Assembly (NCBI GenBank): GCA_009784345.1
Contig: WRBW01000001.1
Location: 32,971 to 96,970 of the forward strand
Direction: 5' to 3'
DNA length: 64,000 nt
Origin: Coriobacteriia bacterium
GTDB taxonomy: Bacteria > Actinomycetota > Coriobacteriia > WRKU01 > WQUG01
The translations under genes were made by a program, and so were the position numbers. Of this stretch, positions 4,809 to 42,434 are shown piece after piece. How positions within the stretch are numbered: position 1 is the first letter of the stretch; each line of letters starts with the position of its first letter. Under the pieces are notes generated by a model that did no database searches, was not told the origin of the DNA, and saw only the letters and a program-made list of their open reading frames with translations.

Positions 4809-4833
4809 CAATTCTTGAACGCAATGCGATGAG

Positions 4834-26511: not shown

Positions 26512-29508
26512 TCAACACAGGGTACCAATATCATGCAACAATTTCTCGCTTAAAGATGACATTCCTGGATTTGCCTGAATAAAATTGTCATAGTTTGCTA
26601 CAAGTCCCTGATAAATCCAGTCTTGATCAATCATTTCTCGGATGAGCTCACTCTGCTGCTCAATTGAAATTGAGCTACTTAAGTAATAATTCATTTGATG
26701 AACAAGCATTGACAGCACATCATATCTGAGCGGAAGCAACCTACCACTTTTCTCGAGTATCTCACGAAGTCTGCTGATAGCATCGATGGCACTAGTCTTT
26801 TTTCCTACCATGCCCCCAGTAAGACTTTCATCGTTATTTGCGCGATAAGTAATCAGTCTGCGATCAAGGGTCGTTATTTTGCCCGCGAGTGCAAGCGCAG
26901 AGTAGGTAAAGCTGATGTCCTCACAATTGGGTAATGATTGAAATCTGAGGCCCTTGGACCTCACGAATGAACTCTTGAACAATTTATTCCACGGGGCAGG
27001 ATTCGTGATTCTGAACAACCCGTTGTGGACATCGCGATAGTCGAAAACATCAAGCTCGGGCAAAAATTTCTGATTCAAATAGTGCGTTGGCTCACTTATC
27101 TCCCGACTTGCCTGGTCGAATATCTTACCGTCGAAGATGGTCACATCGGCATTTGTTGCACAAGCCTTTGAAAACACTTCTTCAATCGTCGTATCCGCGA
27201 TGAAATCATCGGCATCCAAGAAGAGGAGATACCTTCCTCTCGCCATATCCATGCCGCGATTACGAGCGGGTCCAGCAGTTTGATTCTTTTGTGTAACATA
27301 GGAGAGTCTTGAGTACTTACTTGAATATTCAGCTAATATCTGGACCGAATCGTCAGTGCTTCCATCATCAACACAAATGACTTCGAAATTTTGAAAAGAC
27401 TGTCCTATGACGCTGTCAAGTGTCTGCTCGAGATACTTGGCAGAGTTAAATACAGGTATGATGACCGATACATCGAAAGCAATGTTCCTTGCAACATCAA
27501 GAGATTGAACAAAATCCTCACTGAGTTCATTCGTTTTAATAAGCTGCTTATCGTTCATGCTGGATAGCGCGCTGCCTTCTTGAACAAGTGCAATAATCAT
27601 AGATCCACTTGCCAAGTAATCAGCATATTTTGAAGGTAAATATGGATTATTCTCTCCAGAGTATTCAGTATCATTCAGGAAGAGAAAGTCCATTCTGGCA
27701 GCCAGGCTCAGCATTTCCAAGTACCCAACCGAGTCGTTAGTTTTCAATTGCGAATTTTCAAAGCCCATTCGCTTAATGTCATCACGAATACCGTCATAAC
27801 TGGACTTGAAATAGTCGGGCGTGAAAACATGCAGAACAACTCTTGGGTTTTTTAGCAATTCAATCATGGGGTCATGACGCCTATTAGTGTAGAAGGAGCC
27901 GAAGTAGGCAATGTTTATTTTGTCAGCATCGAGCGGATACGCAGGTGTCACGGCCCCAACAAATGCACTGTCGATTTGCGGGTGAGGCCAAATTAAACTG
28001 CGCTTCATCACTGACTCTTTTTCTTCACTGCTTAACGCACTCTTATCCAGCATTAGTTTCTGCTGGTTACTATTGGTAAAAATAATTTTATCAGCGCGTT
28101 CATAAACAGCTGCTTCAACTTCTTGATAACACTGACGCTTCGGGCGTCCCTGTACATCTAACGACAGGGGATCCGAGAATTCAGCGAACCACGTGGCTTC
28201 TGGGTAGAGCTCTTTATACTTGTATGCCGCAAGGTGTGATCCCGACATTTGTGATCGCGAATAAACATATGGCGTCTCATCGAAAATCGCTCTTTCAAAT
28301 GCTCGCTGCCCCCACCATTCGAAGTCGCCAATTTTTTTAGTATTGACCTCTGACTTTTGATCATACTGGTGCTGTGCATAAATCAAGTCGTACATAGGGT
28401 CTGTGCTTCGAAGTGAAGACCAGTCCTGTTTATACACGTTCCAGCCCACAATTTCGCCTACATAGTCTGATATCTGTGAGAGCCTCCGCGAGGCGACATA
28501 TGCAGAAGGGTCTGCCTCGGGTGCAAAGAGCTGGCAAAAGACGGTACCGCGGCTAGATGCAAATCTAGCTCGGTTTATAAGCAGCGCCTTGTCGCTTCTC
28601 AGCCTTCCCCGGACCAGTCTGGCACTCTCTTGGGTTTCATCGCGCGCGCAATAGTCTTCAACCTGCAAGCTTTGGGCTTTAATCTGCCTTATCAAGAATT
28701 TCTTGTGGGTTACGCTTGTGCTGCCATCCAACACTAATGTCGAGAGGTATTTTAAGATATCTAATTTGTCGGTAACATAATCTAGGAGTTGTGAAGGTTC
28801 TGGGCGAGACATGCTCTTCTCCATGACTCTTCGCATATATGCTTCATTGGACTCTTGGCTCACAAACGCAAGTTCTCCACTTATATTTCCAAAATTTTCT
28901 GCCCAAAAGAGAATGTCTTCTGAATGTCTGACGTACTCGGGAATGCGATAGAAAGCGGTTCTCATGAGATCAGTTCGGATGAGCTTGCTGGTACAATTGC
29001 CAAAGAGCGACGTTGCCCACAGGTAATCAGTTGAATACTGCTCCTTTTGCTTTTCAAGGCTTCGATTAATGTATGTATCTGTTTCAATCTGCCCACTATC
29101 AACATCGAAGAGCTTCCCGAAGATAATGCTTACATCTTTCATAGCGAGCTCAAGCATTTCCTGCAAATAGCCCCTGCTAAGCCAATCGTCATCATCTAGA
29201 AAAGTCACATAGTTCTTACTGGCATGCTGGACGCCCACATTCCTTGCGTGCCCAAGACCCGCCTGCTGGGTGTAGATTACACTAACGTTAGAAGTAGAAT
29301 TGTACTCACTTTGGAGGTGCTCAAAATGGATGCGGTCACTTCCGTTTACCACAATGAGCAATTCAACGAGTGATTCATCTATAGTCTGACCCAGTACAGA
29401 ATCAATTGCCTCTTGCAAAGTTGGAGTCACTTTCCAAGTGGCAAGTACAACAGTCACCCCCAGATCCAGACCTTCAACTGGCCCGGGCTCATTCTTTGAT
29501 GCTATCAT
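26512..29508 (-). CDS. three-domain glycosyltransferase: GT2 - uncharacterised 380-aa domain (X) - GT2
   Basis: N-terminal GT2 (VVLATWK...DDDD), then the X domain (FCQLFAPEADPSAYVASRRL...NPYLPSKYADYLASGSMIIALV), then a second GT2 (VSVIIPVFNSAKYLEQTLDSVIGQSF..VICVDDGSTDDS). Start at the internal ATG overlaps the upstream stop by 1 nt. Confidence 0.7.
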   Translation of the reverse strand: MIASKNEPGPVEGLDLGVTVVLATWKVTPTLQEAIDSVLGQTIDESLVELLIVVNGSDRIHFEHLQSEYNSTSNVSVIYTQQAGLGHARNVGVQHASKNYVTFLDDDDWLSRGYLQEMLELAMKDVSIIFGKLFDVDSGQIETDTYINRSLEKQKEQYSTDYLWATSLFGNCTSKLIRTDLMRTAFYRIPEYVRHSEDILFWAENFGNISGELAFVSQESNEAYMRRVMEKSMSRPEPSQLLDYVTDKLDILKYLSTLVLDGSTSVTHKKFLIRQIKAQSLQVEDYCARDETQESARLVRGRLRSDKALLINRARFASSRGTVFCQLFAPEADPSAYVASRRLSQISDYVGEIVGWNVYKQDWSSLRSTDPMYDLIYAQHQYDQKSEVNTKKIGDFEWWGQRAFERAIFDETPYVYSRSQMSGSHLAAYKYKELYPEATWFAEFSDPLSLDVQGRPKRQCYQEVEAAVYERADKIIFTNSNQQKLMLDKSALSSEEKESVMKRSLIWPHPQIDSAFVGAVTPAYPLDADKINIAYFGSFYTNRRHDPMIELLKNPRVVLHVFTPDYFKSSYDGIRDDIKRMGFENSQLKTNDSVGYLEMLSLAARMDFLFLNDTEYSGENNPYLPSKYADYLASGSMIIALVQEGSALSSMNDKQLIKTNELSEDFVQSLDVARNIAFDVSVIIPVFNSAKYLEQTLDSVIGQSFQNFEVICVDDGSTDDSVQILAEYSSKYSRLSYVTQKNQTAGPARNRGMDMARGRYLLFLDADDFIADTTIEEVFSKACATNADVTIFDGKIFDQASREISEPTHYLNQKFLPELDVFDYRDVHNGLFRITNPAPWNKLFKSSFVRSKGLRFQSLPNCEDISFTYSALALAGKITTLDRRLITYRANNDESLTGGMVGKKTSAIDAISRLREILEKSGRLLPLRYDVLSMLVHQMNYYLSSSISIEQQSELIREMIDQDWIYQGLVANYDNFIQANPGMSSLSEKLLHDIGTLC

Positions 29509-29807
29509 TACTTCCGCCTTTTTTTGACTGCGGCGGTTGCTCTCTTGCCAAGCATGCAAATTCTTCGCGCAACTCTGGTCAAGAAAAAAGATTCGAAAGA
29601 GGCAAGTTTCTTTGTCTCAATACGCAAACTGCGTTTTAGACTCTCAATTTCTTCATCCTGGCGAGCAATGTCACTCAAGTAGTTCTTGCATGCAATCTCT
29701 GCAGCCTCAATGACTCTTTGGCATTTTTCTAACTCTTGAGCACAGTCGCGCTGCTTAAGACAGGGGGTTTCGACTGCACAAGAGCGTATGTGGTCGTGAT
29801 TGCTCAT
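29508..29807 (-). CDS. coiled-coil protein with basic C-terminal tail (CC module 1)
   Basis: 99 aa, ...QRVIEAAEIACKNYLSDIARQDEEIESLKRSL...RVARRICMLGKRATAAVKKRRK. Translationally coupled (TAATG) to the GT2-X-GT2 gene. Paralogous to 39164..39643 and to the C-terminus of the TagD-like protein. Confidence 0.45.
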   Translation of the reverse strand: MSNHDHIRSCAVETPCLKQRDCAQELEKCQRVIEAAEIACKNYLSDIARQDEEIESLKRSLRIETKKLASFESFFLTRVARRICMLGKRATAAVKKRRK

Positions 29808-29849
29808 AGAACAGTCATTATAGCACTGGCAGTAGGTATCATTCTGTTC

Positions 29850-30557
29850 TCACGAGCCCAGATGCTTCACAAAGACATACTCGATTTTTATTGGCAGGTA
29901 CCCCATCTTTAAGTGGGCTCTAACCGAACCGGGATTATTTGTCGAAACTGACGTAGTTAGCGTTTGACACCCCTTTCCTCGAGCATATAAGATGCCGCTA
30001 CTAATGATGAGATATGACAGTCGCTTGCCTGCGAATTCGGGGTAGATTCCTACAAGATAACTGTGGCACGAATCCTTGCCAGTCTGTCGCAAAAGCGCGA
30101 AACCAACAGTTTCTCCGTCAGATTCGAGCGCGAGCAATTCCCCCCCCCGGTTCTTCTCATCATCAATCCAGTTAACGTATCGTTGCGCAGACTGCCCTTT
30201 CGAAAAGTGCGGATCCCTCGAAATCCGATCTGTCCCAAATAATCCAGCCTTGATAACTTTGTCGAGGTTATCCTCTTCCTCCTCGGTCATAATGTGGTAT
30301 TCGGCTGAACGAAAGTTCTCTGATTCATCTGTCGCAATCTCCAGCGTCATTAGCGCCTCAGAGAGATAGAATCCTCTTTTATGTAGAACTTCGGACAGCT
30401 CCACTTGCTCAGCAGGTAGCTTAACTACCTGATAGTCTGCATCGATGGTACTAAGATTTTCGGCCAGACTTCCAGCAGTGTCACTCGCCTCAATTATTAT
30501 TTCCTGCACTTTACATCCAAGATTCTCATACTCCCAAACAGCATCAATGACCCGCAT
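29850..30557 (-). CDS. GNAT-family N-acetyltransferase (WecD/dTDP-fucosamine acetyltransferase-like)
   Basis: 235 aa. C-terminal GNAT core FALLRQTGKDSCHSYLVGIYPEFAGKRLSYLII. Sits between sugar aminotransferase and rml genes. Confidence 0.55.
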   Translation of the reverse strand: MRVIDAVWEYENLGCKVQEIIIEASDTAGSLAENLSTIDADYQVVKLPAEQVELSEVLHKRGFYLSEALMTLEIATDESENFRSAEYHIMTEEEEDNLDKVIKAGLFGTDRISRDPHFSKGQSAQRYVNWIDDEKNRGGELLALESDGETVGFALLRQTGKDSCHSYLVGIYPEFAGKRLSYLIISSGILYARGKGCQTLTTSVSTNNPGSVRAHLKMGYLPIKIEYVFVKHLGS

Positions 30558-31548
30558 GTTTAACCTCTTTATCTTCTTTTCTTATATACCCTGAACCATT
30601 TTCATTTGTATCATCTTGCCGGACTACATCTCTGATGACATATTGAGGGCTTGCGCTCTGAGTAATATACATTCGTCCCAAATACTCTCCCATAATTCCC
30701 AGCATTACCATTATTATTCCAGACACAAAAAGGAGGGCTGCCATCATGGAGGTGTAGCCGGCAGGCACATAGGGATCTAAAAGTCTGCGCACCACAATAC
30801 TAATGCCCAGAGCAAAACCACTTAATGCAATGAGCGAGCCAAAAATTGTAGTTACACGCAGCGGCTTGACTGAAAAGGCGGTCGCTCCATTTAGCCATAG
30901 AGACAAGAGTTTCGCGAGAGTGTAGTTCGAAGTTCCGCTTGCGCGTGAGCGATGCTGCACCTCTACAGCTGCAATATTATTTGTGCTCCGCAGTATCAGA
31001 CCGATAACATATGGATAAGCACTGCAGTATCTCACCACTTCATCTATAATGAATCGCCTCGCAACAAAGAAGCTCGTCGTCTGCAAGTTCTTTGGCTTGT
31101 TCATTAGAGTCTCAAGCATGATGGTGTTAACCTTTGTGCCAAATCTCCTAAAAGTGCTTTGCTTTACTATCGGATATTGAGCATAAACCACATCGCTGCC
31201 CGCCTCAATGAGATTAATGAGGGAAAAGACTTCATCGACCGGCGTTTGCCCATCATCATCAAGAGACACTATGATATCTCCGGTTGCGTGACGGTATCCT
31301 GCCATGAGGGCAGCATGTTGCCCAAAATTCTTGGCCAGCTCGATGCCCCTGATTCTATTATCCTCGTGGGCCATGGTTCGGATTATGTCATACACATTAT
31401 CCGGAGAGGCATCTGAAACCAGAACAACTTCCCAAAGATAGTCAGAGTTCAACAGCATGACCTCATGTATCTCTGAAATAACCTTAGGCAGCACTGCTGC
31501 CGAATTGTAGCAGGGGATAACAAAAGATATTTTTTCTTTTTGGTCCAC
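30544..31548 (-). CDS. polyprenyl-phosphate glycosyltransferase (GT2, GtrB/CsbB/DPM1-like) with 2 C-terminal TM helices
   Basis: ISFVIPCYNSAAVLPKVISEI...VSDASPDN...DDDGQ; two C-terminal TM helices. Confidence 0.7.
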   Translation of the reverse strand: MDQKEKISFVIPCYNSAAVLPKVISEIHEVMLLNSDYLWEVVLVSDASPDNVYDIIRTMAHEDNRIRGIELAKNFGQHAALMAGYRHATGDIIVSLDDDGQTPVDEVFSLINLIEAGSDVVYAQYPIVKQSTFRRFGTKVNTIMLETLMNKPKNLQTTSFFVARRFIIDEVVRYCSAYPYVIGLILRSTNNIAAVEVQHRSRASGTSNYTLAKLLSLWLNGATAFSVKPLRVTTIFGSLIALSGFALGISIVVRRLLDPYVPAGYTSMMAALLFVSGIIMVMLGIMGEYLGRMYITQSASPQYVIRDVVRQDDTNENGSGYIRKEDKEVKHAGH

Positions 31549-31611
31549 TTAATATTCCTTTTCATCACAAGGAGAGGACATCAATACTACGTTGATTGAC
31601 GTTCACAGAAA

Positions 31612-32970
31612 CTACTCTTCTTTTAAGGTAATCGCTTCAACACCCATGTATTGCGCCAGACCCTGATTCCTCCAAAAGTCTGGATCGCCTGTTATATCAC
31701 CCAATTGGTATCCTGCACGATACTTTGTTTTAGGGTTGGGAATGGCACTTACTTGGATGTCAGTTTTTCCCATCTCCTTTTGAACTTGAATGTACTTCAT
31801 GCGGGTTCGTTCTGCGCGCCACGCTTGGGCAGTGTCCACTCCGGCCGGTATTACTGAAAACACAAATAACAAAGCGAGTACCAAGACCGTACTCTTTCCA
31901 AGAAATTTCGACAGCTGAAGATCGCTTTCAAACAAGCGTGCGAGAAGGACTGTTGCCGCAGCTACCAAGAAGAAAGTTCCGAAGCTATAGGTGCGCAGCG
32001 CTACCGTGCTAGCAGGTGCAAAAATCATTACGTAGGTTACTGCAAAGGCTGCAGCAACAAAGCAGCCAGCAACATAGAGTGACTCCCTGTTAATTCTCAT
32101 AGTAGTGCAAGCAGCGTAAAGCACAACTATTAGAATTAGTAGCCATTTCAATTCTGAAAAATATACCTCACTTATACTTTGAAATTGCACTATAGTGCTC
32201 ATTGAAATCAAAGAATTGGTGTTGATATACTCTGCACGACTTGCATTCCCTGGTGAGGCCACAACCGCAACCAAACCTCCCAAGCAGCCAATCCATCCTG
32301 CCAGCATCCAAAGCTGTATGCTCTCCCGATTTTTCGCGAACGCATAAATCACAAAGAGGCTGATGATTACCAACGCGCCTCCGGAGCCATTTTGAGCCGC
32401 GTTTCCGGCAACAAGCCCAACCAAAAATATAAGGGGAACGCTCACAACCGCAGGTAAATTTAAGGGTTTATTAAGGAATACCGAGCGATGAAATAGCCAA
32501 ATTAGCACAAAGATTTGCGCAGCGCCCCATAAATATATGATTGCGCCCAGCTGCCACAGAATTATCTGCCCATACACTGGCATAAATACCCAAATCAGCA
32601 GTGATATACTCAGGAAAACCCAGCTATTGTATCTCTGCTTTGGTGCCGCAATTGCATACAAAAGAAATACAAGTGCCACGTAGACACCTGTGTTAATGAT
32701 GTTGAAAAGCGCTTTAGGCACAAGGAAGGAGCCAAAGCCGAACAACGAATTGAATAGTCGACCATCCCAATTGAAATAAAAGCTCCATGCATCACTGATG
32801 GCCTTGCTTAGTGTACTCGCCATTGATGCACGAACCCAGTCATCAGCCACAAGAGGTGTAAGTGCGTTAAACACAAACATCCCAGCAACAACAAAGGCCA
32901 CGCTAAAGAAAAAGACCAGTTTGTCCTTTGTAAAACTGCTCGAATGTTCTTGAATGTCTTCCATGACCAC
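31612..32970 (-). CDS. polytopic membrane protein (candidate GT-C glycosyltransferase partner of GtrB-like enzyme)
   Basis: 452 aa, at least 10 TM, no cytoplasmic domain. Position immediately downstream of the GtrB-like gene. Confidence 0.45.
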   Translation of the reverse strand: MVMEDIQEHSSSFTKDKLVFFFSVAFVVAGMFVFNALTPLVADDWVRASMASTLSKAISDAWSFYFNWDGRLFNSLFGFGSFLVPKALFNIINTGVYVALVFLLYAIAAPKQRYNSWVFLSISLLIWVFMPVYGQIILWQLGAIIYLWGAAQIFVLIWLFHRSVFLNKPLNLPAVVSVPLIFLVGLVAGNAAQNGSGGALVIISLFVIYAFAKNRESIQLWMLAGWIGCLGGLVAVVASPGNASRAEYINTNSLISMSTIVQFQSISEVYFSELKWLLILIVVLYAACTTMRINRESLYVAGCFVAAAFAVTYVMIFAPASTVALRTYSFGTFFLVAAATVLLARLFESDLQLSKFLGKSTVLVLALLFVFSVIPAGVDTAQAWRAERTRMKYIQVQKEMGKTDIQVSAIPNPKTKYRAGYQLGDITGDPDFWRNQGLAQYMGVEAITLKEE

Positions 32971-33037: not shown

Positions 33038-34198
33038 CTAGCCTTCAACCCAGATAGCTGAAGAAGGATGTGCTTTAGCGAAGCTCATTATAGCATCGCA
33101 CACTTTGGATATGTCCTCGATGCTTAAGCCATAAAACAGGGGTAAGCGCAAAATTCTTTCACTTTCCCTTGTTGTATGCACATCTACGCCATGAAATCTA
33201 CCCAGAAGCCTCCCGGCGGGTGCTGAATGTAAGGGAACATAGTGAAAGACCGCTAATATACCCCTTTTCTTCAGCCAACTTATTAACAAGCTCCGCACAC
33301 CAATATCCCTTACCTTAATGTAAAACATATGGGCATTGTGCTCACACTCTGCTGGTATAGTGGGCATTTCAAGAAAACACGCATCAGACAAGGGCTTCAA
33401 CTGTTCATAGTACGATTTCCAAGACTCTAGCCTATTCTGATTTATCTTTTCTGCGTCAATAAGCTGTGCACAAAGAAGTGCTGCATTAAGGTCGCTTGGG
33501 AGATAAGATGATCCGATGTCAACCCAAGTGTATTTATCTACCTGTCCTCTGAGGAATTGGCTCCTGTCTGTTCCTTTTTCACGAATTATTTCAGCCCTCT
33601 TATAAAGCTCGTGATCCTGTATGACAATTGCCCCGCCCTCACCCATACTATAATTCTTTGTTTCGTGGAAACTATAGCAACCTATATCGCCATAGGTGCC
33701 CAAAGGCTTCCCATGGTATTTGGCCATCATAGCCTGTGCAGCATCCTCGATCACAAACAAATTATGATCAGAGGCAATCTTCATAATTGATTTCATTTCG
33801 CATCCAACGCCCGCATAGTGTACAGGAGCGATTGCCCTAGTCTTTTCAGTAATTGCCTCTTCGATCTTTGACTCATCAATATTCATAGTGTCAGGTCGAA
33901 TGTCCACAAAAACAATTTTTGCACCACGCAGAGCAAAAGCATTGGCGGTTGACGAAAAGGTGTACGACGGCATAATCACTTCGTCACCAGTCTTGATATC
34001 AGCTAGCATGGCTCCCATTTCGAGAGCATGAGTCCCTGACGTGGTTAGTAGTGCCCGCCCATTTTCACCGTATTCGTTTAGCCACTCAGTGCACTGTTTG
34101 GTAAAAGGTCCATCTCCACAGAGCTTGTTGCCAGCAATTGCCTGCGCAACAAAATCGTACTCTGTACCAAGAAGTGGTGGCCGATTAAAAGGAATCAT
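33038..34198 (-). CDS. DegT/DnrJ/EryC1-family sugar aminotransferase (WecE-like dTDP-4-keto-6-deoxyhexose 4-aminotransferase)
   Basis: MIPFNRPPLLGTEYDFVAQAIAGNKLCGDGPFTKQCTEWL closely resembles the WecE N-terminus. PLP-lysine region ...SFHETKNYSMGEGG. Confidence 0.8.
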   Translation of the reverse strand: MIPFNRPPLLGTEYDFVAQAIAGNKLCGDGPFTKQCTEWLNEYGENGRALLTTSGTHALEMGAMLADIKTGDEVIMPSYTFSSTANAFALRGAKIVFVDIRPDTMNIDESKIEEAITEKTRAIAPVHYAGVGCEMKSIMKIASDHNLFVIEDAAQAMMAKYHGKPLGTYGDIGCYSFHETKNYSMGEGGAIVIQDHELYKRAEIIREKGTDRSQFLRGQVDKYTWVDIGSSYLPSDLNAALLCAQLIDAEKINQNRLESWKSYYEQLKPLSDACFLEMPTIPAECEHNAHMFYIKVRDIGVRSLLISWLKKRGILAVFHYVPLHSAPAGRLLGRFHGVDVHTTRESERILRLPLFYGLSIEDISKVCDAIMSFAKAHPSSAIWVEG

Positions 34199-34252: not shown

Positions 34253-35971
34253 TCATTCTTCTATGCCGAAGTTGATGACGATAACATCATCAATAATTGC
34301 AATTCCACCTTCGCTTGGCCAGGCTGGCATATCTGAATCAAGTACTGACTTACGAAGCTCTACCCATTTCACGTCATCAGACAATAATGTAACTGGCACT
34401 CCATGTAGGTTCCGGAGATTTGCAACAAATTGGTTTTGTTGCCACCTTCCGTCATTGTGCATCTGAAGAAAATGAGGGTTGGCTAGTGGATGCCCCTGTA
34501 GGGTCGACGAAAAAGGATCATCAATTGCAGGATAGTGCTCATTGGGGATTCCCCCAAAGTATACTATGTCCTTCTCCTCTGACGAAACTTCGGGAATGAG
34601 CCGATCAATCTCAACAGCCAACCTGCCAGCAAAAGAAATTATCCTCTGATTCGCATAGTATGCCTTCAAGTAATAAACATTGTTGACTATTACATGATTG
34701 GCGCCAATGAATAACACGCAGACGAGCATCAAGGACTTAAATATCCCCCAAATATTGGACCTATTATCAGCACCAGCTACAACAAACGCCATAGGAAGCA
34801 TGAATGCAAGCCCCATGAGCGCACTGAACCTAAAGCCTGGCTCGGTAAAGAAGGTGGCAAAATTACTGGCGAAAGGAATAAGTAGTGTCAGCAGCAGAAG
34901 CAGTGACAGCCTCAGCGGTTCGCGATATATCCTCTGGTTAATAATCACGGTCATGAACAGAATCAGCGCAATGATAAGGAAAAGTATGTATGCCATATGC
35001 ATGCTGGGCACTACCTGAAAGCGCGCACCGTCGAAGTTGACAAAAAAGTACTTTGAGGTCGAGAGAAATGAATCTAGCAGCCAGCGTGGTGACAGCATAC
35101 GGCTTAGCATGCTGTCACCAGAGAGACCTCCGTAGCCCGTAAGCGTTATGCCGGTCATGAATTGGGAGACAGGCAGCGAAATACCATACAAAGCGCCGCC
35201 TCCTGCAATTAAGAGTCCGAGCCTCGCAGAAAGGTTTCCCAGATACTTCCAGTTAAAACGCTCAGAGACAATCGTAAATACGAGCAGCATTACTGAGAGT
35301 ACAAGAGCGACATTAAGGAGCGTTTGGTATATTGCAATCGCTATCATTAGTAGCACTGCACCTATCAAGAAACCATACTTGTACTTCTTTGCCAAATAGA
35401 CTGCAAGGACGGCTAAGGCTGCGCCCAAATGTACGTTTGCAGAAGTAAATTGAAACACATTCGCTATAGCTACGGTTGGGTACGTAGAGATGATTAGCGC
35501 AATGAGAAATGCACTGATCTTCTCTCTGATGTCGAAAATTTTACAGAACAAGAAGGCAACTGCCGCAAGAGAGACTGTGGCAAAAATGCCGATAATGGCC
35601 GGCATAAGGTAGCTATACGATAGCTGAATGGCAATTTCGCCAATCCACCTGCCTGCGCCAACCATGTGACCCGTGCGTCTGGGCATCGCAATGCTGTGAT
35701 CCCCAAATATTAAACTCGAATAGACAAATATATTGGTGACAAACCCGATAATTAGTGCTGCAAGAAACGAGTGCTTTGCTGCGGGAGATTCGCCTATCCA
35801 CCAATTGATGAGCTCCGCACCCAAATCAAAGGACTTGACTTTGACAATTAACTCTTGCATATACTGTGACGAGGCTCCTTCTTGCACTTTGACAACACCC
35901 TCAGAACAATGCGGCCAGCTCCACTCTATCGTCTCGCAAGCAGAAAGAACTCTCTGAATTAGTATTTTCAA
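34253..35971 (-). CDS. large polytopic membrane protein (uncharacterised; candidate GT-C/YfhO-like)
   Basis: 572-aa ORF with at least 12 TM segments and a C-terminal extracytoplasmic domain of about 120 aa. True start is probably an internal Met (MQELIVK...). Confidence 0.45.
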   Translation of the reverse strand: MKILIQRVLSACETIEWSWPHCSEGVVKVQEGASSQYMQELIVKVKSFDLGAELINWWIGESPAAKHSFLAALIIGFVTNIFVYSSLIFGDHSIAMPRRTGHMVGAGRWIGEIAIQLSYSYLMPAIIGIFATVSLAAVAFLFCKIFDIREKISAFLIALIISTYPTVAIANVFQFTSANVHLGAALAVLAVYLAKKYKYGFLIGAVLLMIAIAIYQTLLNVALVLSVMLLVFTIVSERFNWKYLGNLSARLGLLIAGGGALYGISLPVSQFMTGITLTGYGGLSGDSMLSRMLSPRWLLDSFLSTSKYFFVNFDGARFQVVPSMHMAYILFLIIALILFMTVIINQRIYREPLRLSLLLLLTLLIPFASNFATFFTEPGFRFSALMGLAFMLPMAFVVAGADNRSNIWGIFKSLMLVCVLFIGANHVIVNNVYYLKAYYANQRIISFAGRLAVEIDRLIPEVSSEEKDIVYFGGIPNEHYPAIDDPFSSTLQGHPLANPHFLQMHNDGRWQQNQFVANLRNLHGVPVTLLSDDVKWVELRKSVLDSDMPAWPSEGGIAIIDDVIVINFGIEE

Positions 35972-36050
35972 CCTGTTTGCGTTACGCGTCAGCTCGATAT
36001 GATAGCATGATTTCCTTGTATTACACTACAATGAAACGGAGGTTACCCTC

Positions 36051-36947
36051 GTGAAGGGTCTCATTCTTGCGGGAGGTAGCGGTACACGGCTGTACCCCAT
36101 TACCATTGCCACGTCTAAGCAGCTCCTGCCTGTTTACGACAAGCCGTTGGTGTACTACCCGCTCTCAACACTGCTTCTGGCAAATATTAGAGACATCCTC
36201 GTAATCTCAACTCCTAGGGACATTGAAGCATATCAGAAACTCTTAGGGGACGGATCTCGTCTCGGAGTTAATTTTTCCTATAAAGTTCAAGACGAGCCAC
36301 GCGGACTAGCTGACGCCTTCATTGTAGGAGAAGATTTCATTGGAGGCGACAATTCTTGCCTGATTTTAGGCGACAATCTTTTCTACGGTCAAAACCTTAC
36401 TCACACGCTCAAAAGTGCAGCGTCTCGAACCGATGGAGCCACTATTTTCGGTTATCCCGTAAGCGATGCACGAGAGTATGGAGTGGTAGAGTTTGATAAA
36501 AAATACCGCGCTCTTTCGCTTGAGGAAAAGCCCGAACATCCTAAGTCAAAGTTTGCCATTCCCGGTCTTTACTTTTATGACAACAATGTAGTCGATATTG
36601 TCAAACAAATTGAGCCTTCTGCACGTGGTGAGCTAGAAATCACATCAGTCAATTCAGCCTATCTCGAAGTTCAGAAATTGCACGTGCAACTGCTTGGGCG
36701 CGGCATGACCTGGCTTGATACAGGCTCTGCTGATGGCCTCTTAAATGCTGCAAATTTTGTGGAAGTTACCCAGTCACGCCAGGGCTTCTACATTTCCTGT
36801 CTCGAGGAAATTGCCTGGCGTCGCGGCTTCATCGATGACTCGCAGCTGGAAAAACTTGGCCACGAGTTGAAAAAGACAAACTACGGCAAGTACCTGTTGT
36901 CTCTGCTTGAAGAGTCTTCTTTGCTTTTGTCTGAAAATGAAAGGTAA
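36051..36947 (+). CDS. rmlA: glucose-1-phosphate thymidylyltransferase
   Basis: [41 protein letters not shown] is near-identical to the RmlA N-terminal signature. Confidence 0.9.
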
Positions 36948-36956
36948 GCCAGCATT

Positions 36957-37961
36957 ATGAAGATGCTCGTCACTGGAGCTGCCGGTTTTATTGGCTCAAA
37001 TTTCGTGTTCCACCAGTTGAAGAAGCGTCCCAAGACCCAAATCGTTGGCTTGGACGCACTCACATATGCAGGCAATTATGAAACACTCAAGCCACTAGAA
37101 GGACACAGCCAGTTTCGCTTTATAAAATCTGACATTACAGACAAAAGCTCTATTGATGTGCTGTTTGATACCGAGAGATTTGATGTAGTTGTAAATTTCG
37201 CTGCCGAATCACATGTAGACAGATCGATTGAAAACCCATCGATTTTTCTAAGCACGAACATCATTGGTACTCAGGTACTAATGGACGCTGCACTGCGCTA
37301 CGATGTAAGGCGCTTCCACCAAATTTCGACCGATGAGGTTTACGGTGATCTGCCTCTGGAACGACCCGATTTATTGTTTACAGAAAGTACGCCTTTACAC
37401 ACATCAAGCCCCTATTCAGCATCAAAGGCTAGCGCTGACCTGCTGGCTCAAGCTTATTATCGCACCTTTAATTTGCCATTGAGTATTTCGCGGTGCTCGA
37501 ATAACTATGGCCCTTATCACTTCCCGGAAAAACTTATACCTCTGGCCATAACTAACGCGCTGGCAGACAAGCCGATCCCTGTGTATGGTACAGGTGAAAA
37601 TGTTCGCGACTGGCTATATGTCGAAGACCACTGTGAGGCGATAGACTGCATCATTACAAGGGCGGATTCAGGTTCCGTCTTCAATGTTGGTGGACATAAT
37701 GAAATGCGAAATATCGATATCGTGAAGCTCATTCTTGACAAGCTTCAAAAGCCTGAATCCCTGATTGAATATGTTTCAGACCGCAAGGGTCATGATCTGC
37801 GCTACGCAATTGACCCCTCCAAAATTGAAAACGAGCTGAGCTGGACCCCGAAGACACAATTCGCAGAGGGTCTCGACAGAACAATTGAATGGTACCTGCG
37901 CAATGAAACTTGGTGGTCGCGTATTCTAACTGGTGAATACCGGAAAAGCCTACCGCGTTAA
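36957..37961 (+). CDS. rmlB: dTDP-glucose 4,6-dehydratase
   Basis: MKMLVTGAAGFIGSNF Rossmann motif, YSASKASAD catalytic YxxxK; 334 aa. Confidence 0.9.
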   Translation: MKMLVTGAAGFIGSNFVFHQLKKRPKTQIVGLDALTYAGNYETLKPLEGHSQFRFIKSDITDKSSIDVLFDTERFDVVVNFAAESHVDRSIENPSIFLSTNIIGTQVLMDAALRYDVRRFHQISTDEVYGDLPLERPDLLFTESTPLHTSSPYSASKASADLLAQAYYRTFNLPLSISRCSNNYGPYHFPEKLIPLAITNALADKPIPVYGTGENVRDWLYVEDHCEAIDCIITRADSGSVFNVGGHNEMRNIDIVKLILDKLQKPESLIEYVSDRKGHDLRYAIDPSKIENELSWTPKTQFAEGLDRTIEWYLRNETWWSRILTGEYRKSLPR

Positions 37962-37964
37962 CAA

Positions 37965-39164
37965 TTACTCAATAGGTTTTTTTAGCGTTTTGACAAATTC
38001 AACAACATTAGTTGAAACCTTAATTAGCTGACTGTCGCTGCGCTTCGACAGCGGACTACCAGAGTTTATCAGCGCTATTATCTCTGTGCCACTAGCAAGA
38101 TAGTCGGCATACTTGGATGGCAAATAAGGATTCATGGCGCCCGGAAAATCTATATCTGCCAAAAGCAGGTAGTCCATTGTGCTCGCAATTGTAAGCATTT
38201 CCAGATTCCCCACAGAGCCGTTTGCTCGCAGCCTTTCCGGCTCATACCCCAATTCTCTAATATCGCAGTTTATGGTGTGATAATTTGAAGCGTAATAATT
38301 CGGTGTAAAAATATGCAGAACAACTTTTGGGTTGCTGAGGATACTCAGCAGTTCTTTATGACCACGCTCGTTGTAGAACGAGCCGAAGTAAGCGACATTT
38401 ATCATATCGCCATCAAGGGAATAATCGACCTGAGCCCTACCTACATACTCTCTATCTATGACAGGGTGCGCCCACACGATACTGCGCTCTCTGATTGAAT
38501 CTATGTCACGTCTTGCACAGTATGAATGCATGAATTCGCGCTGATTTTCATTGGTATAGATAATAAAGTCCGCCTTGTCATACACCATTTCCTCGACACG
38601 AAAAAACCTACTATCTCGTGGCTTGTTGTTCGTGCCGAAGCCGAGCGGGTCTGAGAACTCTGCATACCAGACGACACTAGGATACAATTCCTTATACTTA
38701 GATGCCGCAATATGCGAACCAGGCATCATTGAACGCGAATACATCACATCAGCCTGATAAAAGATCGCACTATCGAACGCTCGCTGTCCCCACCATTCAA
38801 AGTCAGTAAGTCGACTAACAGAAATTTCTTTTCTATGACTGAACTGTCGTATTGCATAAGTCTGGTCGTAATGCGGGTCGGTATTTCTCTGTTCCGAATA
38901 GTCTTGCTTAATTACATGCCAATCTATCTCGGCGCCATAATGAGTTGAGACTTCCGCAAGCCGCTTGGATGCAACATAAGCTGAAGGGTCTGCCTCGGGA
39001 GGAAATAGCTGGCAAAACGCAATCCCTTTTGCTATGCAGCTTTTCCCAAGGTCGAACTGCACTTGATGTCCTGAATCATTGAGATTCTCCGAGCTGGACT
39101 CCTCAAAAGAAAGTATTGGCGTGGACTCATCAGTCATTTGATCAATTGGTATGCCTGCGGCCAC
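37965..39164 (-). CDS. stand-alone X-domain protein (paralog of domain in 26512..29508 and 39670..41682)
   Basis: 399 aa, GTG start overlapping the upstream stop (TAGTG). Shared blocks FCQLFPPEADPSAYVASKRL, DFEWWGQRAFDSAIFY, GSHIAASKYKELYP..WYAEFSDPL, INVAYFGSFY, NPYLPSKYADYLASGTEIIAL. Confidence 0.6.
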   Translation of the reverse strand: MAAGIPIDQMTDESTPILSFEESSSENLNDSGHQVQFDLGKSCIAKGIAFCQLFPPEADPSAYVASKRLAEVSTHYGAEIDWHVIKQDYSEQRNTDPHYDQTYAIRQFSHRKEISVSRLTDFEWWGQRAFDSAIFYQADVMYSRSMMPGSHIAASKYKELYPSVVWYAEFSDPLGFGTNNKPRDSRFFRVEEMVYDKADFIIYTNENQREFMHSYCARRDIDSIRERSIVWAHPVIDREYVGRAQVDYSLDGDMINVAYFGSFYNERGHKELLSILSNPKVVLHIFTPNYYASNYHTINCDIRELGYEPERLRANGSVGNLEMLTIASTMDYLLLADIDFPGAMNPYLPSKYADYLASGTEIIALINSGSPLSKRSDSQLIKVSTNVVEFVKTLKKPIE

Positions 39165-39643
39165 TATGCACTAATAATGCTTTGGTACTCTCGCAGCAAC
39201 CTGCGCCGGACGCGCAGTGCAAAAGTCACCGGTGGCAAAAATCTATATCTTTTGGCGATCTTCCTAAGATAAAATCCGCGTGGGAGATCTGGCAGCCCTG
39301 GAACATTGTCACTTGGTATGTTGAGCTCTTTGCGGAGCCTGATATTCTCCCTTCTCAGTTCCCTTAATTCCAAATCATTATGGAACTGAGCTTGCCGAGC
39401 CGCCTCTACAATTCGTTCCATTTGGTCAATTTTTGAATCCTTGATAGATACCTCTTCCTCGAGGCGTCTGGTTAGTGCTGTAAGCTGCGTAACGTTTTCT
39501 CTGGGATCAAGCGACTCGCAACATTCTTGCAGACCCTCCCGAGCCTGCACATTTGACCCGTCAAAGCGAGTAACTGTATCTTCATAAAGATGTTTCATAT
39601 TCTGATTATGATACCATTTACCAGCATCAAACAGATTCTTCAC
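39164..39643 (-). CDS. coiled-coil protein with basic C-terminal tail (CC module 2)
   Basis: 159 aa, ...RIVEAARQAQFHNDLELRELRRENIRLRKEL...LRKIAKRYRFLPPVTFALRVRRRLLREY. Translationally coupled to the X-domain gene. Confidence 0.45.
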   Translation of the reverse strand: MKNLFDAGKWYHNQNMKHLYEDTVTRFDGSNVQAREGLQECCESLDPRENVTQLTALTRRLEEEVSIKDSKIDQMERIVEAARQAQFHNDLELRELRRENIRLRKELNIPSDNVPGLPDLPRGFYLRKIAKRYRFLPPVTFALRVRRRLLREYQSIISA

Positions 39644-39669
39644 AGACAGAGAAGTGGACTAGGCCAATT

Positions 39670-41682
39670 ATGAACCAATTACAAGGCGGGAATAGTCTTC
39701 CCCTTGGCGTGAGCGTTATCGTTACAACATGGAAGGAAGTTCCCAGCATCTACGAGGCCGTTGCCTCGGTAGTAAACCAGAGTCTCAGTCAGTCCAAGAT
39801 AGAAATTATTATTGTCGTTAATGGAAGTAATGAACAATACTTTGAAAAGTTAGAGTCTACCTATCAAGAATCTGAAAACGTTAGGGTGCTTTACACGTCC
39901 CGCTTGGGAGCCAGTCATGCATGCAACCTTGGAGTTGCTGAAGCATCCATGCGCTATCTAACCTTTCTTGACGACGACGACCAGCTTACAGAAGGCTACT
40001 TGGCCGAACTGCTTAATCTTGACGAGCCTGAAGTGAGCATTATTATGGGAAAGCTCTCAGACTTTGAGGCAGGCAGCTTATCGCGTGACACATACATAAA
40101 CCGAGCAATTCAATCAAGCAGCAAGAGGAGAACAAGCGATTATTTGTCAATAAGTTCACTCTTTGCGAACAAGACAGCAAAGCTTATCAGAACCAATCTA
40201 ATGAAAGCACGCTTTTTGCCCTTCCCAGAAGAATTCTCTCACAGCATAGATGTAGTCTTTTGGTGCCGCAATTTTGGTCGTCTGACTGGCTTGGTTGCCG
40301 TGGCTTCTGCGCGCACTAAAGAGACTTACATAAGGAAAAAGACATCGGACAGCTTGTCCCGACCAGACTCTGCAAAACTCATGCAATACACTGATGATAA
40401 GCTGGCCATGATTAAGGAGTTTTCCGAGCTCTATTTAGATGGCAACACAAGGCCTTCTCACAAAACTTTCTTGCGAAACGTCATGAGTCGTCAGTCACTG
40501 TTTCTAAAGGACTACACGGAAAGTGACCCTAGTGGACAGTGCCTGCAATTGATTCAAGAGCGACTGCTTGCAGACGATGGACTGTTGATAAAGCGTTCGC
40601 TGTTTGCACAGGTCAAAGGTTTAGCCTTCTGTCAATTGTTTTTACCTGAAGCAAGTCCGTCATCCTATGTTTCCTCACGACGTCTTTGGCAACTTTCAAA
40701 GTATCTCGGAAAAGTAATCGACTGGACAGTGCTGAAGCAAGATCTTTCTGAGCGTCGCCACGAGGATAGAGCTTATTACTCTGGCTTTGCCCAATATTTT
40801 TGCGGTAATGTAAAGAATGTTTTCGTTAGAAAGCCTAATGACTTCATGCTGTGGGGACAAAATGCCTTCGAATCAGCCTTATTTTACAAAGTTCCTTACG
40901 TGTATTCTCGCGCACAGTTTCCAGGCTCACATGTTGCCGCTTCAAAATATAAGGCACTGTATCCTGAGACCACCTGGTTTGCAGAATTTTCCGATCCTCT
41001 TTCGCGCGGAACTGATGATTGCGCAAAGACTGATCTTCGGTACGAAGAAATTGAGAATTTGGTATACGATGGCGCTGATTGCATCATTTTCACCAATAAT
41101 AATCAGCGAGAATACATGCTTGGCTACTGCGGTCGATCAGATACTGAGTCCATACGAGAGCGAAGCCTTGTCTGGAACCACACCGTCATAGATAAGGCAT
41201 TTGTAGGCTCTGTCCAAGTGAACTATGCTCTGAATGAAGAGCAGATAAATGTCGCATACTTTGGCTCTTTCTATATGAATCGCGGTCATGAGAACATGCT
41301 TCGGCTACTAAATAATCCCAGGGTCGTGCTACACATATTTACACCCGACTACTTCAAATCAAACTACGGCCAGATTGATGATGACATTAAGCGGATGGGT
41401 GTTGATCCGGGACGCCTTCGTAGAAATGACGCTGTTAGCTATATGGAGATGCTGGGGCTTGCACAGCGCATGGATTATTTATATCTGGGTGATGTTTCAT
41501 TTCCAGGCACAGTCAACCCATACTTACCCTCCAAGTACTCTGATTACGTTGCTAGCGGAAGCAAAATTATTGCCGTAGTCGAACCAGGCAGCCCTCTTTC
41601 GCAGCAAAGATGCGATCAGCTTATCAAACTTCAGAGCCTAAATGATGATTTTATTGCCACCCTAGCAAAGCCCATCAGCTAG
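39670..41682 (+). CDS. GT2 glycosyltransferase fused to X domain
   Basis: N-terminal GT2 (VSVIVTTWKEVPSIYEAVASVVNQS..FLDDDD), then the X domain (LAFCQLFLPEASPSSYVSSRRL ... NPYLPSKYSDYVASGSKIIAV); 670 aa. Confidence 0.7.
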   Translation: MNQLQGGNSLPLGVSVIVTTWKEVPSIYEAVASVVNQSLSQSKIEIIIVVNGSNEQYFEKLESTYQESENVRVLYTSRLGASHACNLGVAEASMRYLTFLDDDDQLTEGYLAELLNLDEPEVSIIMGKLSDFEAGSLSRDTYINRAIQSSSKRRTSDYLSISSLFANKTAKLIRTNLMKARFLPFPEEFSHSIDVVFWCRNFGRLTGLVAVASARTKETYIRKKTSDSLSRPDSAKLMQYTDDKLAMIKEFSELYLDGNTRPSHKTFLRNVMSRQSLFLKDYTESDPSGQCLQLIQERLLADDGLLIKRSLFAQVKGLAFCQLFLPEASPSSYVSSRRLWQLSKYLGKVIDWTVLKQDLSERRHEDRAYYSGFAQYFCGNVKNVFVRKPNDFMLWGQNAFESALFYKVPYVYSRAQFPGSHVAASKYKALYPETTWFAEFSDPLSRGTDDCAKTDLRYEEIENLVYDGADCIIFTNNNQREYMLGYCGRSDTESIRERSLVWNHTVIDKAFVGSVQVNYALNEEQINVAYFGSFYMNRGHENMLRLLNNPRVVLHIFTPDYFKSNYGQIDDDIKRMGVDPGRLRRNDAVSYMEMLGLAQRMDYLYLGDVSFPGTVNPYLPSKYSDYVASGSKIIAVVEPGSPLSQQRCDQLIKLQSLNDDFIATLAKPIS

Positions 41683-41750
41683 CAAGAGGGTATCAAGGCT
41701 TATTACCATTCAGCCAAGCATTTGACGTATCAAATCTTGCAAGGTTGTTG

Positions 41751-42434
41751 CTAGCGCTTTACATACTTGCGAAGCCTTGCCCGATAACTCTTCGGAACCA
41801 TCCTGCGAACCGCAAACACAAGAGCGGTCTTAATGCTTTTTAAAGCCTCATTCCTGGAGCGCAAATAATTGATATCTTCCTCGTATCGGTTGCACGCAAT
41901 TTGCGCAGCATCAATTATCTTATTTTTTTGCTTCAGAGTTCTTTGGGCACTCGCGAGCTCTGCTGAAAGGGCTTCGACACTTCTGTACTCTGGCTCAAAA
42001 GCCGGCTGGGGCAGTACGGAATGGTCATCCTCGGGGCTTAAGAGCTTGAGCTCATCTTTGATTTGCGTTGTTGAAATGCCTTCGGTCCTGTCCAGAAAGA
42101 CGAGCTCACAAACATCTGCAAGATACTCAAATCGATCACTTCCGGCCCAGTCACCGCCCATGACGACGACATCAATGTCATTGTCTTTTACATCTTTGAT
42201 TTTTTGATTCCAATTTCTTTCTGGAATAACCTCATCAACATCACACAGAGAGAGGAGCATCTCGCGACGAACATCATAGCTGTGGTATGTTTTCTTACCC
42301 TTCTGCTCGAGATTGAATTCGTCCGTTGATAAAGCAACGGTTAAGTGGTCCCCCAGAGCACGTGCACGCTTGATAAGTCGGATATGACCATAGTGCAATA
42401 AGTCGTAAGTTCCGTATGTGAGTACTTTTTTCAC
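41751..42434 (-). CDS. tagD: glycerol-3-phosphate cytidylyltransferase with C-terminal coiled-coil/basic-tail extension (CC module 3)
   Basis: Residues 1-130 align with B. subtilis TagD (MKKVLTYGTYDLLHYGHIRLIKRA...TEGISTTQIKDEL). The roughly 95-aa extension ...KIIDAAQIACNRYEEDINYLRSRNEALKSI...AVRRMVPKSYRARLRKYVKR is paralogous to CC modules 1 and 2. Confidence 0.85.
   Translation of the reverse strand: MKKVLTYGTYDLLHYGHIRLIKRARALGDHLTVALSTDEFNLEQKGKKTYHSYDVRREMLLSLCDVDEVIPERNWNQKIKDVKDNDIDVVVMGGDWAGSDRFEYLADVCELVFLDRTEGISTTQIKDELKLLSPEDDHSVLPQPAFEPEYRSVEALSAELASAQRTLKQKNKIIDAAQIACNRYEEDINYLRSRNEALKSIKTALVFAVRRMVPKSYRARLRKYVKR

Follow-up and report, generated by a model that had tools for sequence, protein, structure and literature searches.

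A divergent GT-B domain and its short coiled-coil partner genes in a cell-wall glycopolymer island of a Coriobacteriia genome

The locus raises the question of what is done by a domain, here called X, that occurs in three genes of a single island, and why short coiled-coil modules (CC) with a basic tail are encoded beside it. The window, a stretch of 64,000 nucleotides from a Coriobacteriia genome, contains at ~24.9-47.3 kb an island of low GC, which encodes an ABC-transporter-dependent cell-wall glycopolymer pathway. An ABC-2 permease (46496-47293; Pfam PF01061) and an ABC exporter ATPase (45738-46499; PF00005), both of the TagH/TagG or Wzt/Wzm type, are followed on the reverse strand by a stand-alone GT2 glycosyltransferase (44595-45704). 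Pfam matches further identified a GNAT acetyltransferase (29850-30557), a GtrB-like GT2 (30544-31548), a DUF6056 membrane protein (31612-32970), a DegT aminotransferase (33038-34198) and a GtrII-like membrane glycosyltransferase (34253-35971), all on the reverse strand, together with RmlA (36051-36947) and the dTDP-glucose 4,6-dehydratase RmlB (36957-37961) on the forward strand. The final gene of the island encodes a Wzy_C/O-antigen-ligase-like membrane protein (24981-26396, reverse strand; PF04932), and the same family is found, by synteny, downstream of the orthologous GT2-X gene pair in the metagenomic contig L001.

Sequence comparison confirmed that a domain of ~360 aa is common to the three genes, with pairwise identities of 50-54%, and all motif blocks quoted for it in the preliminary description were located within this shared region. 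In the 998-aa protein (26512-29508, reverse strand), X occupies about aa 314-678 (nt ~27475-28569), with Pfam GT2 domains at both ends of the polypeptide; this protein is the orthologue of P0003 from L001 (X identity 61.9%). The 399-aa protein (37965-39164, reverse strand) is a stand-alone X, with the GT-B fold at aa ~40-399 and an N-terminal stretch of 35 aa that is disordered in the structure model. In the 670-aa protein (39670-41682, forward strand), a Pfam GT2 domain is followed by X at aa ~310-670 (nt ~40597-41679), which is identical to that of an NCBI protein (P0002) from a Coriobacteriia MAG. The AF2 model of this GT2-X protein reached a pLDDT of 92.2 and a pTM of 0.89, and Foldseek placed its N-terminal half close to RmlT/TarP/TarS and its C-terminal half close to HepE. 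X is composed of two Rossmann-like beta/alpha/beta domains separated by a cleft, so the GT-B resemblance initially ascribed to its C-terminal half was right as to the fold but too narrow in extent, the whole of X being GT-B with both Rossmann halves.

X falls into none of the curated sequence families, in agreement with the initial failure to assign it to one. The three copies of the window gave no match to PF00534 or PF13439 at E<=0.1, and among 19 members of the X family PF00534 was matched by two (best E 0.022) and PF13439 by one (E 0.0033). The alignment of X with a GT4 sequence by hhalign had a probability of 0.9%, a weak test because the template was a single sequence. By inspection, the EX7E motif is absent from the C-terminal domain of X (A1), where the corresponding stretch reads NPYLPSKYADYLASG: the invariant Asp D354 stands at the would-be second glutamate, the residue 8 positions upstream is Pro instead of Glu, and the family signature NPYLPSK replaces the first glutamate. 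The N-terminal domain carries the distinctive motifs YSRS and WxAEFSDP. The lack of the first glutamate and the failure of GT4 sequence models indicate that the chemistry of X could differ from that of GT4 enzymes. The same missing glutamate of the canonical GT4 motif, as well as the occurrence of stand-alone X adjoining GT2 genes, would also fit a catalytically dead GT-B serving the neighbouring GT2 as a structural or acceptor-binding module. This is very unlikely, since 17-19 polar residues do not vary between the bacterial and archaeal members (R267, S350, K351 and D354 among them, in the numbering of the 399-aa protein), including an Arg of the GxxxxxR loop and a D-Y pair at the place of the nucleotide-binding site of GT4 enzymes, and dead domains usually lose such residues. 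X is best described as a divergent GT-B glycosyltransferase domain of GT4-like fold, which would catalyse glycosyl transfer.

The chemistry might alternatively be that of a TagF-like enzyme that transfers polyol phosphate or sugar phosphate and draws on CDP-glycerol, rather than that of a Leloir glycosyltransferase. TagF enzymes are likewise GT-B-like, the island contains both TagD and a TagF-type gene, and sequence inspection placed the strand-loop AYFGSFYxxR of X where LYxPTWR would stand. We regard such an activity as quite improbable. As first noted, PTWR does not occur in X but does in the TagF-type protein, a 720-aa fusion of GT2 and glycerophosphotransferase domains (42436-44598, reverse strand); this neighbour scored 195 bits against PF04464, which gave no match to X, and the hhalign probability between X and the TagF/TagB type was 0.4%.

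A motif scan with one peptide pattern matched X relatives in at least 264 species genomes, and the family comprises hundreds of clusters at 50% identity. X is nearly always C-terminal to a GT2 domain: the best 150 representatives all cover GT2 and X, and the 998-aa representative P0029 covers the profile over its full length. This nearly constant fusion behind GT2 points to a two-site polymerase. ABC transporters are present in X-family loci (ABC-2 permease and ATPase in 25-35 related loci), and in 48 of 87 loci both wecB and a UDP-ManNAc dehydrogenase gene were located within 10 kb of X, the donor in most X lineages being probably UDP-ManNAcA or its partner sugar. The 64-kb window itself yielded no UDP-ManNAcA synthesis genes (wecB, wecC). 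The near-constant presence of wecB/wecC and ABC exporters beside it marks X as a concrete candidate for the polymerases of ManNAcA polymers of the teichuronic-acid type, for which the literature searched identified no genes.

The coiled-coil partners are less uniform than X. CC1 (99 aa; 29508-29807, reverse strand) and CC2 (159 aa; 39164-39643, reverse strand) overlap their downstream X genes by 1 nt, the stop codon of CC1 overlapping an ATG (TAATG) and that of CC2 a GTG (TAGTG), as had been reported for both. The three modules had been presented as paralogues, and this stood for CC1 and the tail of TagD (phmmer E=0.003 among 9,073 ORFs). CC2, however, is marginal with respect to CC1 (BLASTP E=0.008 in a single comparison; phmmer E>1), and no sequence similarity to the TagD tail was detected. 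Within 1.27 M residues, the motif [VIL][VIL]xAA[EQ]xACxxY was confined to CC1, the tail of TagD and the orthologue in L001/L002. A crude heptad heuristic delimited coil segments of 35-60 aa in CC2 (coiled-coil-like at aa ~48-99) and the TagD tail, with CC1 scoring 0.59, just under the threshold of 0.60; these coils are far shorter than those of methyltransferase-CC proteins from Bacilli. The tails are strongly basic (+9 in both CC1 and CC2; net charges of +9 to +10 overall) with hydrophobic residues interspersed among the basic ones, but not demonstrably amphipathic as had been supposed: the maximum helical hydrophobic moment did not exceed that of shuffled sequences, a fraction of 0.06-0.42 of which reached it. 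No recognizable domain was found in CC1 or CC2, and no chain-terminating enzyme at the distal, N-terminal end.

The pairing extends beyond the source genome, as the co-occurrence analysis showed for an unrelated contig, for Bacilli and for Proteobacteria. The metagenomic contig L001/L002 contains a CC-X pair with the identical 1-nt overlap; in Macrococcus, small CC genes abut GT2-X on the upstream side; in Halobacillus, Rossellomorea, Neobacillus and Bacillus, genes for a methyltransferase, CC and basic tail lie directly upstream of GT2-X; and methyltransferase, CC and GT2-X form one polypeptide in Stenotrophomonas (L066) and in a Methylococcaceae MAG (L083). CC ORFs were enriched 6.6-fold next to X genes (18/168 versus 17/946, p=3e-7), and by the same kind of heuristic about 70% of related loci have no CC, indicating that the pairing is frequent and not obligatory. 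Within the window, the claim that each X copy has its own CC partner is supported for two copies by translational coupling, but for the third (TagD-CC) by proximity and by an X tree weakly congruent with the order of CC similarity. The small ORFs might instead be decayed remnants of methyltransferase-CC terminators, or proteins that do not bind X, with overlaps due to mere operon compaction. The CC sequence family is tiny as far as profile searching can tell (a search of 5.8 billion proteins returned the query proteins alone), CC2 hardly resembles CC1, and its start codon is uncertain, with only 26 bp between it and the start of the divergent GT2-X gene and no Shine-Dalgarno sequence. Nevertheless, this alternative is unlikely: the CC1 orthologue of L001 is intact (E=4e-13, identity 35%) and has the identical overlap, on a contig where X identity is 62%, which implies selection since the split; independent small CC genes occupy the identical position in Macrococcus; and several assemblies carry the ORFs uninterrupted over their full length.

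The CC modules are on balance probably membrane tethers or scaffolds without a terminator, serving the GT2-X polymerases of the glycopolymer pathway, and the CC and X set resembles a pared-down form of the machinery in which a coiled-coil ruler is known to work with a polymerase. With two active sites, GT2-X would be the kind of enzyme that polymerizes disaccharide repeats on the cytoplasmic side of the membrane. The CC modules, with short coiled coils and a basic end rich in hydrophobic residues, would correspond to the membrane-proximal part of WbdD/WbbB-type proteins: they may oligomerize, attach to the membrane by way of the basic tail, and dock or organize the cognate X-containing transferase, and the translational coupling through the 1-nt overlap would set the CC:X stoichiometry.

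The third CC module is, as described before, fused to the C-terminus of TagD (glycerol-3-phosphate cytidylyltransferase, aa 1-130; PF01467, TIGR01518), whose gene (41751-42434, reverse strand) is convergent with the 670-aa GT2-X gene across an intergenic gap of 68 bp. The C-terminal extension of ~97 aa (aa ~131-227, nt ~41754-42044) contains IIDAAQIACNRY. The fusion appears unique, none of the 120 best TagD homologues sharing it, and the X family is elsewhere accompanied by UDP-ManNAcA genes, not by TagD. The idea that the scaffold tethers the supply of CDP-glycerol draws on one fusion protein and finds no parallel in these homologues. The fusion bears also on whether the CC modules are true rulers or carriers of terminators; TagD, at the membrane-distal end where WbdD has its catalytic domains, would then make CDP-glycerol locally, and the GT2-TagF protein would cap chains with glycerol-phosphate at a set length. 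TagD is no transferase but synthesizes a nucleotide-activated donor that is soluble, the coil has only ~60 aa, TagD-CC is a singleton among the 120 best homologues and neither CC1 nor CC2 has an enzyme attached. A ruler role has accordingly a low probability, although the GT2-TagF gene is immediately upstream of TagD-CC in the same operon, TagD is N-terminal and distal, as terminators are in all known cases (PMC11231755), and a methyltransferase holds that position in related Bacilli and Proteobacteria.

If functional, terminator-less CC modules and TagD-CC would separate the tethering role from that of ruler and terminator, and the tether reading would suggest for Gram-positive wall-polymer loci a coiled-coil organization known from Gram-negative O antigens. 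If the CC proteins are operon debris, what remains is a GT-B family that lacks annotation, in a teichoic-acid-like locus of the ordinary kind; the curated sequence libraries have in X overlooked a large glycosyltransferase family. Among the carriers of the pairing are type strains that can be cultured, for example Macrococcus caseolyticus DSM 20597, which makes the tether reading testable at the bench. A bolder proposal, which we hold to be unlikely, is that X is the missing polymerase of ManNAcA-type wall polymers and capsules in Gram-positives, methanogens and some Proteobacteria, and that the ruler of this island has been reduced to bare paralogous tethers, one per paralogous polymerase module and one of them bearing TagD, in a membrane-bound multi-enzyme factory that would produce CDP-glycerol at a set distance from the membrane, to be used in capping or in a copolymer.

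The hallmark of ABC-transporter-dependent glycan assembly is a coiled-coil protein that binds the membrane by its C-terminus and either recruits the polymerase or carries it, as in WbdD/WbdA, WbbB and ORF6 of Klebsiella pneumoniae O7 (PMC11231755). The presumed novelty of the pair therefore applies to the uncurated X family, but not to the kind of pairing. In E. coli O9a and K. pneumoniae O3, the coiled-coil protein WbdD is separate from the multi-domain cytoplasmic polymerase WbdA, which it recruits through its membrane-binding C-terminal region, and export proceeds via a Wzm/Wzt-type ABC transporter (PMC11231755). The window also encodes CC with X genes in a locus having an ABC-2 transporter, and Bacilli X loci with a methyltransferase-CC-basic-tail gene directly upstream of GT2-X resemble WbdD-WbdA in layout. 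CC1 and CC2 differ from WbdD in their much shorter coils and in lacking a terminator domain, be it kinase or methyltransferase, the third CC carries TagD at the N-terminal end where related loci carry a methyltransferase, the polymerase combines GT2 and a divergent GT-B instead of the GT4-GT4 of WbdA, and the organism is a Gram-positive-type Coriobacteriia. WbbB (K. pneumoniae O12) and O7 ORF6 unite terminator, coiled coil and two polymerase GT modules in one polypeptide, as do the X-family fusions of Stenotrophomonas and Methylococcaceae, whereas the modules of the window are split into separate, translationally coupled genes, and the GT families differ (GT99/102/103 or GT2-GT2 versus GT2 and X). 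X shares 9-13% identity with GT4 retaining enzymes (sucrose-phosphate synthase 6kih, BshA, WaaG, PimA, HepE) and, unlike them, has no above-threshold match to PF00534 or PF13439. With TagF/TagB (PF04464), a true member of which is present in the island, X has in common the GT-B-like architecture and the cell-wall polymer context; it differs in having no sequence or profile similarity and no PTWR, and TagF was absent from the top structural matches. Most X-family loci, which have wecB and wecC as the window does not, have a further parallel in the teichuronic acid synthetase (TUAS) of Micrococcus luteus, whose genes were not identified in the study concerned; in TUAS, a glucosyltransferase and a ManNAcA transferase form a membrane-associated complex that makes a polymer of ManNAcA-Glc disaccharides (PMC3005890).

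Base composition analysis revealed that GC content is 43-49% at about 24-48 kb of the window as compared to 53-61% in the remainder, and that this segment is flanked by P-type ATPase genes (22259-24784 and 51044-53974) and housekeeping genes. The low GC content and the P-type ATPase borders suggest horizontal acquisition of an island (~24000-48000) that holds the entire glycopolymer locus. The island is an ABC-transporter-dependent cell-wall glycopolymer locus, whose reverse strand carries an ABC-2 permease (46496-47293), an ABC ATPase (45738-46499), a GT2 (44595-45704), a GT2-TagF protein (42436-44598; PF04464 at 195 bits, PTWR present), TagD with a C-terminal extension (41751-42434), the coiled-coil module CC2 (39164-39643), X alone (37965-39164), a GtrII-like membrane glycosyltransferase (34253-35971), a DegT aminotransferase (33038-34198), a DUF6056 membrane protein (31612-32970), a GtrB-like GT2 (30544-31548), a GNAT acetyltransferase (29850-30557), the coiled-coil module CC1 (29508-29807), GT2-X-GT2 (26512-29508), and a Wzy_C-like membrane protein (24981-26396). 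GT2-X (39670-41682), RmlB (36957-37961), and RmlA (36051-36947) are encoded on the forward strand. Just outside the island, a 566-aa ORF without Pfam match (47453-49153, reverse) lies directly downstream of an ABC ATPase gene (49080-50078, reverse) and overlaps it by 74 nt; the two may constitute a second, unusual ABC system. Elsewhere in the window, a 1,596-aa ORF (54227-59017, forward) had no Pfam match at E ≤ 1e-4, and a 976-aa protein (14837-17767, reverse) showed an unusual combination of an RCC1-repeat beta-propeller with weak multihaem cytochrome matches (Cytochrome_C7, MtrC/MtrF-like).

An alignment of the three X copies covers about 360 residues, with pairwise identities of 50-54%, and contains all motif blocks quoted in the preliminary description. 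As in that description, X could not be assigned to a known sequence family: GT2 was the sole match of the window copies in Pfam and NCBIfam scans, and neither phmmer with a single protein nor an X-only profile matched a PDB sequence (the PDB matches of a first profile, A3, which spanned the GT2 half, were all GT2). Confident structure predictions were obtained, with a pLDDT of 87.3 for the 399-aa X protein and of 92.2 (pTM 0.89) for the 670-aa GT2-X, whose X domain is identical to that of P0002, an NCBI protein of a Coriobacteriia MAG. Structural matches of X were sucrose-phosphate synthase 6kih (score 25.8), BshA (23.4), HepE (22.2), WaaG (20.6), and PimA (19.8), with about 300 residues aligned at 9-13% identity, and TagF structures were absent from the top 60 matches. 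A few X-family members matched Glycos_transf_1 or Glyco_transf_4 faintly, and inspection indicated that X has the family signature NPYLPSKxADY in place of the first EX7E glutamate of GT4 and retains an invariant Asp where the motif has its second. Based on the GT4-like predicted fold, the faint Pfam matches and the altered EX7E motif, X is filed here as a GT-B glycosyltransferase-fold domain resembling GT4, outside the GT4 and TagF families; rather than the new enzyme class first supposed, it would be a divergent GT-B glycosyltransferase. Membership of the GT4 or TagF family was rejected on the Pfam scans and on hhalign, which gave no signal for X against the TagF domain of the window or a single GT4, single-sequence templates making both weak tests. 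Foldseek with the whole GT2-X chain retrieved no solved structure of the same two-domain build (TMq ≤ 0.36); the N-terminal half resembles the wall-teichoic-acid glycosyltransferases RmlT, TarP, and TarS and the C-terminal half resembles HepE. No paper describing this GT2-GT-B family was present in the literature searched.

A word-indexed search recovered only 27 X relatives, and an exhaustive search with a profile recovered far more among 1.84 billion representatives. Because its GT2 half also picks up GT2 enzymes generally, this profile overstates the total counts at E < 1e-3, and only the architecture of the top 150 matches and a rough count at 1e-30 (594) are usable. All of the best 150 matches cover the GT2 and X portions of the profile, and many of these lie inside proteins as long as 1,831 aa; sources that name X-family proteins call them "glycosyltransferase" only. 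With the peptide pattern PYLPSKx[AS]DY, 264 loci (one genome per species) were confirmed in Clostridia, Bacilli, Actinomycetota, Methanobacteria, and several Proteobacteria. As in the window, two or three X paralogues lie side by side in many loci of Actinomycetota, Methanobacteriota, and Macrococcus (L019, L048, L059, L064, L068, L070, L073, L080, and L081), so that multi-paralogue arrays appear typical of the family. In a Clostridium MAG and a Bacilli MAG (L009, 8873-13315; L010, 8939-13372), GT2-X carries a C-terminal heparinase II/III-like domain (~1,480 aa), a fusion that joins polymerase to a putative polysaccharide lyase.

Genomic context analyses of 87 loci revealed, within 10 kb of an X gene, a UDP-GlcNAc 2-epimerase homologue in 52, a nucleotide-sugar dehydrogenase homologue in 60, and both in 48, while ABC-2 permease or ATPase homologues were present in 25-35 loci; these counts are lower bounds, as many contigs are short. 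The epimerase and dehydrogenase genes often directly adjoin X genes (loci include L003/L008, L084, L085/L086, and L087). The epimerase neighbours are wecB, above the NCBIfam cutoff, and the best NCBIfam match of the dehydrogenase neighbours is UDP-ManNAc dehydrogenase, above cutoff in one of the four tested. Together with the ABC-2 neighbours, this gene content points to a family tied to UDP-ManNAcA-containing polymers of teichuronic-acid type, which would be exported by ABC transporters. This does not apply to the window or to L001, its nearest relative, which carry TagD, TagF or LicD-type genes instead; wecB and wecC were found neither in the 64-kb window nor in the available L001 sequence. 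In a blastn comparison bearing on the K7 ManNAcA capsule, the Actinobacillus minor homologue had no match in E. coli genomes.

The 1-nt coupling described earlier for both free CC genes was seen at the expected junctions, where the stop codons of CC1 (TAATG at 29508) and CC2 (TAGTG at 39164) overlap the start codon of the next X gene. The divergent starts of CC2 (GTG 39643) and GT2-X (ATG 39670) are 26 bp apart (39644-39669), and the CC2 GTG has no Shine-Dalgarno sequence; translation of CC2 may in fact begin at an internal Met, or the promoters may extend into coding sequence. A promoter/terminator scan of 37.5-42.6 kb gave matches no more numerous than in shuffled sequence. CC1 and the TagD tail were mutual best non-self matches among 9,073 ORFs (E ~0.003), and they have in common a 12-residue motif that occurred elsewhere, in 1.27 million residues, only in the CC1 orthologue of L001/L002. 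CC2 matched CC1 marginally (BLASTP E = 0.008; phmmer E > 1) and the TagD tail not detectably. The CC tails are strongly basic (net charge +9 to +10), but their amphipathic character was not demonstrated, because their helical hydrophobic moment was not above that of shuffled sequence. The recurring X/CC pairs are real, and of the three proposed CC paralogues CC1 and the TagD tail are related, while CC2 paralogy and tail amphipathicity carry these caveats.

A CC profile retrieved only the query proteins among 5.8 billion proteins, and a CC HMM matched only the window and L001/L002 among 83 loci; by these searches, the CC sequence family is confined to the lineage of the window. The CC architecture recurs in four settings outside the window genome, and the expected co-occurrence with X was found in this form. 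In L001/L002, a 111-aa protein with 35% identity to CC1 (E = 4e-13) overlaps a GT2-X gene by 1 nt (TAGTG), and the X of L001 is orthologous to the GT2-X-GT2 copy of the window (61.9% identity). In Macrococcus, coiled-coil proteins of 67-212 aa with basic tails have zero gap to GT2-X genes, with two such pairs in M. caseolyticus. The GT2-X proteins of M. caseolyticus DSM 20597 are encoded at 4298-6487 and 8788-10908 of L068. In Halobacillus, Rossellomorea, Neobacillus, and Bacillus, GT2-X is directly preceded by a gene for a methyltransferase (PF13489 or FkbM-type PF05050) that continues into several hundred coiled-coil residues and a conserved basic tail ...ERKYLALKNSKLGRLTLKYWKLRKK. A single polypeptide comprising methyltransferase, coiled coil, GT2, and X occurs in Stenotrophomonas (L066, 1,376 aa) and in a Methylococcaceae MAG (L083, 1,493 aa). 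At the end of coiled-coil proteins of Bacilli, most of which have a methyltransferase domain, there is a conserved basic motif of S[KR]LG[RS]xxxKYW type followed by K/R-rich residues (L035 7314-9002, L042 7420-8982, L061 7403-8962, L075 6825-8858, L077 6796-8886, L082 7397-8938, L041 3860-5578, and L068 3659-4297), and this motif may bind the membrane or dock the polymerase in WbdD-like proteins of Gram-positive bacteria. Across 80 loci of other species, a crude heptad heuristic, which overlooks short Macrococcus coils and may include some spurious high-GC ORFs, scored 18 of 168 ORFs within 300 nt of an X gene as coiled-coil-rich compared to 17 of 946 elsewhere (odds ratio 6.6, Fisher p = 3e-7), and a coiled coil adjoined or was fused to X in 23 of the 80. 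No paper on Gram-positive coiled-coil rulers was present in the literature searched.

The TagD part of the fusion is a normal glycerol-3-phosphate cytidylyltransferase of 130 residues (TIGR01518, 154 bits), extended by about 97 residues. The best 120 homologues, 62-75% identical in the TagD part, are all 130-166 aa, and the tail is confined to the protein of the window. The fusion is identical on three contigs and is therefore not an assembly artefact. TagD here occupies the position held by terminator enzymes of known systems, but a ruler or capping role is speculative, since TagD is a nucleotidyltransferase, not a polymer-modifying enzyme.

The CC similarity order (CC2, (TagD tail, (CC1, L001 CC))) mirrors the X tree (X alone, (GT2-X, (GT2-X-GT2, P0003))), in which P0003 is the L001 protein. 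One tether per transferase would fit this congruence, which is weak evidence because with four taxa chance gives it one time in three. The layout of the window and its relatives matches the established paradigm of ABC-transporter-dependent glycan assembly, in which the coiled-coil protein may itself bear the polymerase modules, as in WbbB and in ORF6 of K. pneumoniae O7 (PMC11231755). On this basis we propose that GT2-X proteins would act as two-site polymerase modules, that the CC modules of the window would correspond to the membrane-proximal portion of such a system, serving as tether or scaffold and lacking a terminator, and that translational coupling would keep each CC and its partner at a fixed ratio; in this model we infer that the CC modules bind the membrane, oligomerise, and contact X. 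Enzyme-scaffold pairing is supported by comparative genomics, and the first interpretation is partly right in this respect. What appears to be new is a GT-B family that lacks annotation and is linked to ManNAcA polymers, together with the coiled-coil proteins that partner it in Gram-positive bacteria, tethers without terminator, and the TagD-CC fusion, and the pairing itself varies an organisational principle that is already known.
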